Below, piece by piece: positions 6,001 to 9,000 of a stretch of 24,873 nucleotides of DNA. Position numbers: made by a program. The DNA is from a virus (lineage: Duplodnaviria > Heunggongvirae > Uroviricota > Caudoviricetes). The stretch lies in the IMG/VR virus record IMGVR_UViG_2609459852_000004, one strand, 5' to 3'. Positions within the stretch are counted from its first letter, which is position 1, and every line of letters begins with the position of its first letter.

Positions 6001-9000
6001 CGAGTGTGCAGCTCCGGGCGTCGTGGCGTTTTGTGTCTGTGGAGAAACTAACGCATGAACAGTTTAACGGCAAATAACCGTTTGTCGCAACAGCTGGTGG
6101 TCAGTGTCGCTGAACACCTGTTGTTACGGCATGAATGCAGATTACCAAATCACCTGGCTGTAAGTAACCACAGAGAACTTTACCTGACTGTGGGGGGCGA
6201 GTTGTGCAGGAACTTAACCGCTGGTTTCGTGATGGAAGAGGGCTTTATGTCCATGTTATTCGTTGGGAGCCAGAAACTCAGCGCGTTATCTATCTTCGCA
6301 AAGACTACCCGCATGAGTGCTTTAGTCCTTTGTGGAAATTCAGGCGTGATTTTGTTGAGTGTGAAGGACCACCAGCACATTGATTCTGCCATTCCGGGAC
6401 GTTACACTGTTCAGGCACCTTATAAAGCGGGTGCCGGGATTGGCGTCCTGAAATTGATTACTGAGCATAACCGCGCTCATGCGGTTTTTTCGTGTCATGA
6501 GCATTGCTACGCCCAAATTATGGTGGGGCGTACAGGGCCGACTTCGGTCGGGCCGGGTTCGGTAGTCTCCGGTAACGCCAACCCTGTACGTCTCACCACC
6601 TCTGTGATTGGCGTCCCATGTGGTGAGTTTTCTAAAAAACTGACTACCGGGGCTGTCACTATGACTACTCTCCCAACCCTCTCTCAACCTGAAATTGCCA
6701 TCGTTGATGGTCAGGCTGTTACATCTTCTTTGGCTGTTGCTGACTTCTTCTCTAAACGTCATGACGATGTTCTGAAAAAGATTCGCATTTTGGATTGTTC
6801 TCCAGAGTTTTGTGCCCGCAATTTTGCGGAGACATCAATTTTGGTACGCCAGCCCAACGGCGGTACTCGCAAACTACCTTGCTATCAAATAACCCGCGAT
6901 GGCTTTGCGTTTCTTGCTATGGGTTTCACGGGTAAACGTGCTGCCCAGTTCAAAGAGGCATACATCAATGCCTTTAACCAGATGGAGAAACAGCTTTCAA
7001 AGCCCGCTGTACCGAGCGACGTTGCACATAACGCCAGTGTTCTCTATTCCTACATTTCATCAATTCATCAGGTCTGGTTGCAGCAGCTTTATCCCATGCT
7101 GGAAAAAGCTGAATCACCTCTGGCTGTAAGTCTGTATGACCGAATTAACGATGCGGCATTTCTTGCCCGTCTTATTCATTCGTCGCTGAACTCTTCAGAG
7201 GTAAGGGGGCGCAAATGATCCGGAATATTTTCAAACGATTTACCAATCAGACTTTCCGTTGTCCTCGCCCCGGTCAGTGGTACACCACGCCTGCAGGGCA
7301 TGTTCTACGTGTTAGCCTGGTGGACCGTGAATGTCAGAAGGTGATTTGTGAACCGCTGGGTCGTAATTACCGCGTCAGTATGCCGCTTATAGCCTTTCGC
7401 TCCGGAAAAAACATGAAGCATCTCGGAGGTGCGGCATGAGCCTGTTAATGACATCCCAGCCCATTGTGATAAATCGTGATCTTGCATGTCGTATTGGTCT
7501 GAATGAGGCAATTGTGTTGCAGCAGCTTCATTACTGGCTGAATGAAACGAATTCAGGCACTGAGCATGGCGGAATTCGCTGGGTTTATAACACGACAGAA
7601 CAGTGGCTGGAGCAGTTTCCGTTCTGGTCAGAGTCCACTCTGAAACGCACATTTGCAAGCCTGAAATCACTTGGGGTTTTGCGTCGCGAGCAACTCAATA
7701 AATCGAAGCGTGACATGACCAACTTCTACACGATCAACTATGAAAGTGAGCTTTTAGAAGAGGTCAAAGTGAACGAATCCATCAGGTCAAAATGCACTTC
7801 TCCATCGGGTCAAAGTGACCTGATGGATGGGCGCAAAATGACACGATCCATTGGTTCAAAACGACACGCTGTCATCGGGTCAAAATGGCCCAATGATCTT
7901 ACAGAGAATACAACAGAGATTACTACAGAGAATAAACCCTCTTCTCGTCCGGACGCTTCGCAACCGGACACGCAAACGGCTGAACAGGAGTTTTTAACTC
8001 GCCATCCTGATGCGGTTGTATTCAGCCCTAAAAAGCGCCAGTGGGGAACGCAGGATGATTTGACCTGCGCACAGTGTCTCTGGAAAAAAATCATCGCCCT
8101 GTACGAGCAGGCCGCCGAATGTGACGGCGAGGTGGTTCGTCCCAAAGAACCGAACTGGACAGCATGGGCAAACGAAATTCGCCTGATGTGTGTGCAGGAT
8201 GGTCGTACTCACAAACAAATCTGCGAGATGTACAGCCGCGTCAGCCGTGATCCGTTCTGGTGCCGTAACGTGCTCAGCCCGTCGAAGTTGCGGGAAAAAT
8301 GGGATGAGCTTTCCCTGCGCTTATCGCCGTCCGTCAGCACGCACACAGAAAAACGTGAAGACCCGTACTTCAAAGCCAGTTACGACAACGTGGACTACAG
8401 CCAGATCCCGGTAGGATTCAGGGGGTGATCATGAGTCTTTTGAATGAAGTTCAGAAATTCATTGAAGCCCATCCGGGGTGTACTTCCGGAGACATTGCGG
8501 ATGCTTTTGCTGGTTACTCACGGCAGCGCGTTCTGCAGTCAGCAAGCAAGTTACGTCAGAGTGGGCGTGTGGCTCACCGTTGTGAAGGAGATACACGCAG
8601 ACATTTCCCACGCCTGACTGAGAGAGCGCAGGAGCCGGAACCACAACCAGTTCGTGAAACCAGACCTGTGCGCAATTTCTATGTCGGCACTAACGATCCC
8701 CGGGTGATTTTGTGCCTGACCCGCCAGGCTGAAGAACTGGAGTCAAGGGGCTTATACCGTCGTGCTGCAACCGTGTGGATGGCGGCATTCCGTGAAAGCC
8801 ACTCCCAGCCAGAACGAAACAATTTTCTGGCGCGTCGTGAGCGGTGCTTACGGAAAAGCAGCAAGCGAGCTGTATCGGGTGATGAGTGGTATCTGTCAGG
8901 GAATTACGTGGGGGCTTAATGAGTAATAAATATTGCCAGGAGCTGGTGGAACTGCGGAACAAACCAGCCCATGAACTGAAGGAAGTGGGTGATCAGTGGT

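Follow-up and report, generated by a model that had tools for sequence, protein, structure and literature searches.

What does an open reading frame (ORF) of 387 codons encode when it runs uninterrupted into a domain that normally begins a protein? This question is raised by positions 6055 to 7218 of the tailed-phage record IMGVR_UViG_2609459852_000004 (IMG/VR; Caudoviricetes), a stretch of 24,873 nucleotides (nt) that is referred to here as the window. The original prediction, made by reading the sequence alone, drew attention to an ATG at 6055 whose frame stays open into a Rha domain, to an ORF for 59 amino acids (aa) that starts with GTG in another frame (6204 to 6383), and to a run of six Gs (6192 to 6197) just before that GTG. 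It offered three possibilities, namely, a frameshifted or phase-variable small gene, a genuine fusion protein, or overlapping genes. The long frame, whose ATG overlaps the stop codon of the preceding ymfL-like gene (ATGA), the GTG ORF, and the G tract were all present as described. On the basis of the comparisons below, we consider it likely that the stretch is not one coding sequence but four stacked elements of the early right operon of a lambdoid prophage of the e14/SfV/ST64B type, i.e., a ymfM-like gene, a DUF4222 gene nested in it, an RNA immunity module of the isrK/C4 kind, and a Rha-family gene. The elements, their conservation, the covariation of stems and of loop and targets, and the selection on stop codons were computed here.

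The DUF4222 ORF and the ymfM-like frame around it

The 59-codon ORF (6204 to 6383, plus strand) lies in the -1 frame of the ymfM-like frame and matches Pfam family DUF4222 (PF13973; E value, 9.5e-14; 51.1 bits versus a cut-off of 27), with residues 3 to 52 aligned to profile positions 4 to 51 of 53, a match that exceeds chance. Relatives carry the gene in annotated form (WP_001341559.1), and an AlphaFold2 model of its product is a small beta barrel of the SH3/Tudor/DUF1653 kind (mean predicted local distance difference test score, 84). In close relatives, third codon positions of DUF4222 account for 13 of the 25 variable columns; the IMG/VR loci compared here were picked with an exact 25-nt pattern and are close relatives. 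The G6 tract ends 6 nt upstream of the GTG on the same strand and resembles a Shine-Dalgarno (SD) element. Purine tracts of this type (GGAGG, AGGAAGG, AAGGAG, or GGGGGA) stand 6 to 10 nt before the DUF4222 start in nearly all of the 36 species loci introduced below, in Escherichia coli K-12, and in ST64B. Because a purine- or G-rich tract is conserved at this distance from the start codon, the G tract is best read as the SD of an independently initiated DUF4222. The window thus holds an independent ORF of about 59 codons that has a start and an SD-like element of its own and encodes a foldable domain, and this ORF is best read as a real DUF4222 gene served by the G6 tract, not as the remnant of a lesion.

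The part of the enclosing frame that does not overlap DUF4222 (6055 to 6203, plus strand; MNSLTANNRL...LTVGG) occupies the slot of ymfM in the e14 prophage of K-12. Its start context (cgcATGA) and a homologous N-terminal half are kept across species. In 23 distinct, diverged relatives, diversity over 6055 to 6203 was 0.156, 0.125, and 0.259 at codon positions 1, 2, and 3, respectively, and amino acid identity was 80%, which indicates that the N-terminal half of the ymfM-like frame evolves as a protein. Over the overlap, the corresponding values in the DUF4222 frame were 0.163, 0.114, and 0.434; the peptide of the enclosing frame was only 51% conserved there, and the second positions of that frame were the most variable. 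The coding signature in the overlap belongs to DUF4222 alone, and the only constraint on the enclosing frame is that it contain no stops. Dual coding would be expected to reduce synonymous variation in DUF4222; this was not seen, the third positions of DUF4222 being the most variable sites. Profile searches matched no Pfam or NCBIfam model to the ymfM-like part; in a comparison by eye, the N-terminus of the window was homologous to the commoner ymfM-like subtype.

Scanning an alignment of DUF4222 against one genome per species yielded 36 loci, from Citrobacter, Enterobacter, Kluyvera, Phytobacter, Kosakonia, Raoultella, Pantoea, Mixta, Atlantibacter, and other genera. The two-frame arrangement was present in all 36. 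At every locus, the DUF4222 ORF has a start codon of its own, in most cases ATG, and the enclosing frame (+1 relative to DUF4222; the one used by K-12 ymfM and, in the window, from ATG 6055) is open. The ATG of the enclosing frame lies 101 to 182 nt upstream of the DUF4222 start (mostly 167 or 179), and in 33 loci the frame ends at +157 or +160 after that start, giving an ORF of 108 to 116 codons in most. The third frame, taken as a control, is closed after no more than about 11 nt.

Selection is visible both in the absence of stops from the enclosing frame and in the place where that frame ends. When DUF4222 was randomized synonymously, the probability that the enclosing frame stayed open was about 0.06, and about 2.1 stops were expected; none was observed in 36 of 36 distinct sequences. 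At the three sites that are at risk in nearly every sequence, only CTT, CTC, GTT, and GTC are used, with variation among these, and CTG, GTG, and GTA never occur; at a neighboring site that is not at risk, GTG is the commonest valine codon (10 of 17). The stop, in turn, always arises from a rare NTA codon at a single DUF4222 codon (ATA in 24, TTA in 6, and GTA in 3 of 33 distinct sequences), and the position of this codon is fixed whatever amino acid DUF4222 has there. Stop avoidance at the codons at risk, together with the fixed stop-making codon, leads us to conclude that the open state and the end point of the frame have both been selected. Of the three possibilities first offered, overlapping genes is therefore the one supported: the ymfM-like frame and, embedded in it, a DUF4222 gene that has an SD and a start codon of its own are kept together in 36 species loci, with selection on stop codons.

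The window agrees with this family in the position of its ymfM-like frame, its start context, and its overlap with DUF4222, and it departs from the family in lacking the stop at +157, which would be expected at about 6361. There, in the lineage of the window, ATA followed by G has become TGT followed by G (at about 6360). The same replacement of ATA by TGT at the stop-making codon (ECE versus EIE in DUF4222) is found in ST64B, SfV, mEp460, and Citrobacter braakii, and because of it the enclosing frame runs on in all five. Within the set of 36 species loci, isrK and C4 stand directly downstream in C. braakii (L132) alone, and it is also there alone that the frame runs on.

Typical enterobacterial ymfM-like/DUF4222 loci also appeared in a contig of Vagococcus sp. 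WN89Y (L154) and in a contig of a metagenome-assembled genome of Geobacteraceae (L163). Both probably reflect contamination or mis-binning of enterobacterial prophage DNA.

A known parallel for the embedding is lambda Rz/Rz1, a conserved pair in which one short gene, equipped with an SD and a start codon of its own, is contained in the other in a different frame. DUF4222 is likewise embedded on the same strand with an SD of its own; unlike in Rz/Rz1, sequence constraint in the overlap falls on the embedded gene only, and all that is kept in the enclosing frame is the absence of stops before a fixed end point.

The pair extends to K-12. Within ymfM of its e14 prophage, the -1 frame holds a complete DUF4222 ORF of 59 codons that is not annotated (NC_000913.3, 1204001 to 1204180, plus strand; 4002 to 4181 in our locus L003), with a TTG start, AAGGAG 8 nt upstream, a Pfam E value of 8.6e-19, and a stop that overlaps the start region of ymfN/oweE (4171). 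The C-terminal half of YmfM as annotated in K-12 is an out-of-frame read of DUF4222. K-12 ymfM (SfiC) shares with the window the slot after ymfL, the ATGA-coupled start, and the N-terminal MNSLT, but it stops at codon 112 and has no isrK, C4, or Rha downstream, and beyond MNSLT the two N-termini are of different subtypes. We rejected YmfM as a direct homolog of the long frame, given that only MNSLT is common to both and that the C-terminal resemblance is the shared out-of-frame read of DUF4222. The ymfM study cloned the whole ORF, so its filamentation clone holds both ORFs, although the embedded one is not mentioned there. Z-ring block and filamentation by YmfM were shown in that study for the K-12 clone only. 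Given that the SfiC clone encodes both YmfM and DUF4222, either could be the division inhibitor. Literature searches on DUF4222, on the ymfM overlap, and on an internal start returned nothing relevant and no paper describing the overlap. We thus found no earlier description of a nested ymfM-like/DUF4222 pair under stop-codon selection across the Enterobacterales, including the hidden ORF of K-12.

isrK and C4 RNAs upstream of a Rha-family gene

The original prediction had noted stable hairpins at 6400 to 6560, one of them a stem with a UUCG loop. These are real, but they had not been recognized for what they match, namely, two Rfam families at scores above the gathering threshold. An isrK-type RNA, a relative of P4 seqA, lies at 6415 to 6491 on the plus strand (RF01394, full length; 59.3 bits versus a threshold of 50; E value, 1.4e-10), and relatives score 62 to 72 bits. 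A C4-type antisense RNA, related to P4 CI and to Gifsy-1 STnc1160, follows at 6516 to 6603 on the same strand (RF01695; 82.3 bits versus 45; E value, 5e-15) and covers model positions 1 to 87 of 87. The pair also scores above the gathering threshold in ST64B, SfV, mEp460, C. braakii, and two unrelated E. coli loci (L168 and L169).

The C4 RNA consists of a 17-bp outer stem, a first inner hairpin with the UUCG loop (6536 to 6554; stem, GGCCGACTTCGGTCGGGCC), and a second hairpin whose loop, GUUCGGUAGUCU (6557 to 6568), carries the specificity. The minimum free energy fold reproduces this structure, and 6415 to 6670 as a whole folds with a z score of -4.4. In 13 distinct sequences, 351 of 351 stem cells were paired and eight pairs had changed on both sides; covariation was 0.34, compared with 0.145 for shuffles and at most 0.067 for slid controls.

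The loop has two complementary sites on the plus strand. Positions 6557 to 6567 pair with a copy of the target in the isrK linker (GATTACTGAGC, 6456 to 6466) and, over 10 bp, with GACUACCGGG (6642 to 6651). The latter belongs to a seqC-like C4 target, GACUACCGGGG (6642 to 6652), that overlaps an SD-like GGGG 7 nt upstream of the Rha ATG. Loop, linker site, and pre-ATG site co-vary, giving about ten specificities; the co-variation of the pre-ATG site with the loop was seen in ST64B, SfV, mEp460, C. braakii, L168, and L169. Two additional 8-mers complementary to C4, at 6302 to 6309 (AGACTACC, within DUF4222) and at 6139 to 6146, were set aside as probable chance matches. The DUF4222 peptide at 6302 to 6309 (KDYP) is the same in SfV despite the different loop of that phage, a comparison made at the peptide level.

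The isrK RNA ends in a plus-strand terminator, i.e., a hairpin at 6469 to 6486 (seven pairs, four of them G-C) followed by TTTTTT, of which relatives carry a second sequence version, again hairpin plus U-run, in a shifted register. A putative isrK promoter on the plus strand (6380 to 6408) comprises TTGATT (6380 to 6385), a 17-nt spacer, and TACACT (6403 to 6408); it ends 6 nt before the isrK 5' end, with a predicted start at about 6415, and its -35 hexamer contains the TGA stop of DUF4222 (6381 to 6383). Across five diverged lineages, the two hexamers do not change although the spacer does, and the independent locus L168 has a near-consensus TTGACA-17-TATATT in the same register. An upstream ORF (uORF) of the Gifsy-1 orf45 type occupies 6520 to 6660 on the plus strand (47 codons) and continues in frame into Rha with no stop. 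Its AUG lies at +106 from the isrK 5' end, and the Rfam C4 consensus also has an AUG, at model positions 5 to 7. An AUGA overlap of the uORF stop with the downstream start is absent from the window and present in L168.

One E. coli prophage (L169) was observed to carry two tandem isrK-C4 modules (891 to 1079 and 1547 to 1735) with different loop specificities. Both modules are contained in ORFs, one in each, and these ORFs follow one another with overlaps of stop and start codons.

The Rha-family gene itself (6661 to 7218, plus strand; 185 aa) ends in a TGA that overlaps the next ATG (ATGA, 7215 to 7218). Read from ATG 6661, it matches PF09669 over residues 21 to 110 (96 bits versus 29.9; E value, 2.1e-27), corresponding to aa 223 to 312 of the long frame, and TIGR02681 over residues 12 to 114, i.e., profile positions 5 to 106 (92.8 bits versus 45.95). 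Because the profiles begin within 12 to 21 residues of this ATG, and because an SD-like motif and the antisense target stand just upstream of it, the comparisons support ATG 6661 as the natural, regulated start of Rha, in agreement with the original prediction that Rha begins there.

Three known systems resemble this arrangement. In the immI region of phages P1 and P7 (c4, icd, and ant), the sequence of the C4 loop sets immunity specificity. The window RNA matches the same Rfam family over its full length and with a high score, and it also has a gene of the cell-division-inhibitor type next to it (the ymfM slot); the order in P1 is c4, icd, ant, whereas in the window the RNAs are preceded by the ymfM-like/DUF4222 pair. 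The arrangement of sites in the window is that of seqB, seqA, and seqC of P4 CI and of a and b of P1 C4. According to what PMC7313666 relays of Citron and Schuster (1990), C4 of P1 and P7 is an antisense RNA that derives from its target's own transcript and blocks the ribosome-binding site upstream of the antirepressor gene.

P4 CI lies in a gene of the Bro network, which includes Phage_ASH and Phage_pRha, and the Rfam C4 and isrK models detect relatives of CI and seqA (PMC10111431). As in P4, a C4-type RNA is flanked in the window by two loop-complementary copies, the upstream one, detected by the isrK model, standing by a terminator; all three complementary sites are present and co-vary. In both cases, the RNA is inside an ORF of the Bro/Ash/Rha network (PMC10111431; PMC4825925). 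The window differs from P4 in that its module belongs to a lambdoid early right operon, after cro-, cII-, and ymfM-like genes and before Rha and replication genes, and in that its downstream target overlaps a ribosome-binding site.

In Gifsy-1 (isrK-orf45-anrP), the uORF orf45 has its AUG at +107 and is translated, and its translation is needed for that of the antirepressor, whose gene directly follows the uORF; a processed RNA of about 80 nt (STnc1160) comes from the uORF region, and isrK has its own promoter and a leaky Rho-independent terminator and is complementary to the uORF region (PMC4825925). Trans-activation of the antirepressor by IsrK and Hfq binding were shown for Gifsy-1 only (PMC4825925). 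The window matches Gifsy-1 in uORF spacing, terminator, complementarity, and gene order. The stop of orf45 overlaps the AUG of anrP, whereas the uORF of the window is fused in frame to Rha, as the authors of the Gifsy-1 study saw in one Shigella sequence (PMC4825925). The frame of the window also extends farther upstream, through isrK into the ymfM-like gene, and the module stands in an early operon, in contrast to the Gifsy-1 position near antQ.

From these comparisons we infer expression, RNA processing, and regulatory outcome as follows. Translation of the ymfM-like gene would start at ATG 6055, coupled to that of ymfL, and only its N-terminal residues, about 50, are conserved in sequence. 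DUF4222, nested in the -1 frame of the ymfM-like tail, would be initiated independently through the G6 SD. An immunity module of the P4/P1/Gifsy-1 type would come next, with the promoter at 6380 to 6408, an isrK-type RNA with a leaky terminator, and a C4 RNA that overlaps the uORF and would be processed out of read-through transcripts. Rha would be repressed when the second C4 hairpin pairs, through its loop, with the target that covers the ribosome-binding site of the Rha gene. Since isrK carries a near-copy of this target, it may be bound by C4, with termination being promoted as for P4 seqA, or it may titrate C4, with activation resulting as for Gifsy-1 IsrK. In the lineage of the window, the ymfM-like frame appears to have lost its stop and so to have become open through the RNA module into Rha, and this loss would account for both the 387-codon ORF and its match to the Pfam family Ash.

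The RNA module and the Rha and DUF4222 families were already known, and RNA immunity in "Ash/Rha genes" has been noted for P4 and satellites (PMC10111431). We found no description of the extension of a ymfM-like frame across a complete RNA immunity module. The roughly ten co-varying specificities suggest a second, RNA-based layer of P4/P1-type immunity that is diversifying in lambdoid early operons, beside the replication genes, and that would bear on superinfection immunity and on the induction of toxin-carrying phages.

The 387-codon frame and its possible use

The long frame (6055 to 7218, plus strand) is labeled "Rha family phage regulatory protein" by the Prokaryotic Genome Annotation Pipeline (PGAP). 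It is composed of the ymfM-like N-terminus, the unconstrained tail over DUF4222, a read-through of the RNA module, and Rha. It is open in virtually all relatives that carry the G6 tract. Between 6380 and 6660, it is open in 45 of 47 distinct haplotypes, and the segment lengths are all multiples of three; the 45 codons between DUF4222 and AUG 6520 are open as well. Dinucleotide shuffles left 6384 to 6660 open in a given frame in only about 5% of cases, and four of five indel events between 6493 and 6660 preserved the frame. Over 6384 to 6660, the frame shows no codon periodicity (30, 33, and 32 variable columns at the three codon positions). Homologs do keep the long frame open, as would be expected of a single conserved protein, but the synonymous-biased substitution that the original prediction associated with such a protein is missing from it over 6204 to 6660.

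Pfam family Ash (PF10554) matches aa 117 to 212 of the long frame, i.e., nt 6403 to 6690 (43 bits versus 26; E value, 6.8e-11). This span coincides with the isrK and C4 RNAs, both in the window and in orf37 of SfV (L130), sb41 of ST64B (L129), L168, and L169. There is no sign that the "Ash" stretch evolves as a protein: variation over codon positions is flat, and RNA covariation is found instead. In L168, the Ash frame ends with a stop that overlaps the Rha ATG.

Annotations of this region vary. For "Ash" stretches, PGAP gives either an "ash family protein" or a "Rha family" protein into which they are merged, and identical or nearly identical DNA is annotated as a 387-aa protein, as a 321-aa protein plus a DUF4222 "pseudogene," or as a 59-aa DUF4222 plus "ash."

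These data bear directly on the alternative that the main product is a genuine 387-aa multidomain protein (a YmfM-like N-terminus, "Ash," and Rha), with the DUF4222 ORF and the RNA matches being secondary. Such a protein would fit a frame that is open in nearly all relatives and joined there to two different C-terminal modules (278 aa, and 381 to 389 aa), the frame-preserving indels, and the Pfam matches to both Ash and Rha; phage genome authors and PGAP annotate one gene, and a Shiga toxin (Stx) Eru preprint treats Rha/Ash as a protein. It does not fit the missing periodicity between DUF4222 and Rha, the variable second positions and the weakly conserved peptide over DUF4222, or an "Ash" span made up of two Rfam RNAs with covariation of both stems and targets. 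The same frame, moreover, stops before the RNA region in 33 species and at the Rha ATG in L168, an SD and an antisense target stand directly upstream of ATG 6661, and in Gifsy-1 orf45 the nucleotides are conserved and the amino acids are not (PMC4825925). We consider this alternative unlikely. Some translation through the long frame may nevertheless be real and functional, and hence also a Rha isoform of 387 or 232 aa. The long frame is probably real and maintained but not a conventional protein; it is either a by-product of a translated uORF and conserved RNA sequence or is kept open for ribosomes arriving from ymfL.

The latter option can be put as a tentative proposal, one that we hold to be possible but rather doubtful: the ymfM-like frame may be a translational bridge, selected for the passage of ribosomes and not for its peptide. 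In all relatives, ribosomes from ymfL would be carried across DUF4222 to the fixed stop, and in the window this passage would be extended across the RNA module into Rha. Transcripts from the early right promoter would then be translated without a gap, overriding the isrK terminator, Rho, and the C4 block, and transcripts from the internal isrK promoter, which would lack such translation, would still be subject to RNA immunity. One stretch of DNA would thus have opposite outcomes, depending on which promoter had fired. A bridge of this kind fits the chain of overlapping stop and start codons in the operon (see below) and the open but unconstrained tail over DUF4222.

Several points weigh against the reading of the locus as four stacked elements. 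The GTG start and the G-only SD of DUF4222 are weaker than the combination of ATG and GGAGG in most species. The sequences used for the selection analysis share ancestry, so that their counts are not counts of independent events, although the codons at risk do vary among the allowed synonyms. The isrK stems offered no countable covariation, hairpins 1 and 2 being nearly invariant, and the putative isrK promoter matches 8 of 12 consensus positions and was not listed by a consensus promoter scan. The frame is also kept open across the RNA module (the 45 of 47 haplotypes), with frame-preserving indels, and the whole case is built on comparing sequences.

Should the four-element reading hold, it would apply to hundreds of prophages of E. 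coli, Shigella, and Salmonella and to Stx phages, which are annotated with a "Rha/Ash" protein of about 380 aa. The first 200 codons so annotated would in reality be made up of a ymfM-like gene, DUF4222 nested inside it, and a pair of regulatory RNAs. In studies of Stx-phage regulation, "Ash" still figures as a protein domain whose function is unknown.

G-tract alleles and the surrounding operon

As had been predicted, one extra G in the tract joins the two frames into a 109-aa protein (48 + 2 + 59 codons), and alleles of this form exist. The fusion P0001 is 99% identical and present in 44 contigs, and G7 occurs in six complete E. coli genomes. The exact 48-mer with G6, for comparison, is found in 973 complete E. 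coli records, and G6 is present in 124 of 127 fetched loci, with G7 in three. The variation in tract length that the original prediction suggested looking for thus exists, but it is rare. G7 was confirmed in L007/L008 and in L170 to L173, where L170 is a singleton that could be a homopolymer sequencing error. The allele stands on at least two backgrounds, and the length of the tract has therefore changed more than once, though rarely. In the G7 allele L008, the RNA module is kept, and frame 0 ends with the 109-aa fusion.

The other G7 allele of this pair, L007 (Logan SRR30267174 contig, about 3330 to 3400), has a 194-nt deletion that removes isrK and C4 and leaves no Rfam matches. Its ymfM/DUF4222 fusion is directly followed by an SfV-type downstream frame.

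When the 109-aa sequence was searched against phage genomes by tblastn, it was found in two pieces over 326 nt in SfV, mEp460, cdtI, Ayreon, 2H10, and many Stx phages; ST64B carries the same two-piece split, at 74% identity. In ST64B and C. braakii, a TGA stands in the DUF4222 frame between a G5 run and the conserved GTG, and no slip at the G run could therefore yield a fusion in either. We rejected G7 as the ancestral state on the grounds of the G6 and G7 counts, the phage survey, and the 36 species loci.

A frameshifted or phase-variable gene, in which an ancestral 109-aa protein (N-terminus plus DUF4222) would be inactivated or switched by a slippage-prone tract with G6 as the off state, is accordingly hard to uphold. 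An extra G does restore the 109-aa ORF, G7 alleles exist and arose on at least two backgrounds, and other in-frame fusions are known from other lineages (P0022, P0044, P0046, and P0058). However, G6 is the standard form by far and is carried, in split form, by viable phages, all 36 species loci have two frames, most of them with no homopolymer, and the fused forms are small clusters of 1 to 19 member sequences. A tract of six bases is also short for a contingency locus. Together with the TGA before the GTG in ST64B and C. braakii, these findings make the explanation very improbable.

Equally improbable is a programmed -1 frameshift, in which ribosomes from ATG 6055 would slip on G_GGG_GGC (6192 to 6198) into the DUF4222 frame and so make a 109-aa fusion (junction peptide, as for a G7 product, ...LTVGGRVVQELNR) beside the long-frame product: the heptamer is in the zero-frame register of an X_XXY_YYZ site, the -1 frame is open from 6168, and both frames are kept open in all relatives, but relatives do not conserve the heptamer (a G5 run and then an in-frame TGA precede the GTG in ST64B and C. 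braakii), other species have both frames open with no slippery motif, what is conserved instead is the SD and start codon, and G-only heptamers are, to our knowledge, not among the efficient bacterial shift sites.

Some database proteins switch frame in other ways. P0002, P0003, P0004, and P0005 have frame switches at other positions or internal deletions, and a 107-aa "putative antirepressor" of Salmonella phage 118970_sal3 consists of the N-terminus, about 17 residues of the enclosing frame, and DUF4222. Proteins of this kind are either real indel variants or assembly errors.

The locus is part of the immunity and early-right region of a lambdoid prophage, which spans about 5250 to 8430 of the window. 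A cro-like helix-turn-helix gene (5254 to 5514) is followed by the ymfL-like gene (5507 to 6058, plus strand), a member of the CII/CP76 family (PF06892; E value, 4.9e-15) that is annotated as ymfL in identical E. coli records. After the long frame come a 74-codon ORF and a replication-type gene. Identical DNA is present in E. coli chromosomes, flanked by ymfL and by replication, PerC, Dam, and RusA genes. Stop and start codons overlap at 5507 to 5514 (GTG..TAA), 6055 to 6058 (ATGA), 7215 to 7218 (ATGA), 7436 to 7439 (ATGA), and 8425 to 8428 (GTGA). This chain runs from the cro-like gene past the replication gene, and it is free of gaps only because the long frame spans the RNA module.

On the minus strand, an ATG-initiated ORF of 140 codons (6340 to 6762) lies opposite the end of DUF4222, isrK, and C4. 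No family match was obtained for it and relatives carry no annotation of it; most likely, it arises as a side effect of the G+C-rich structured RNAs encoded on the plus strand.

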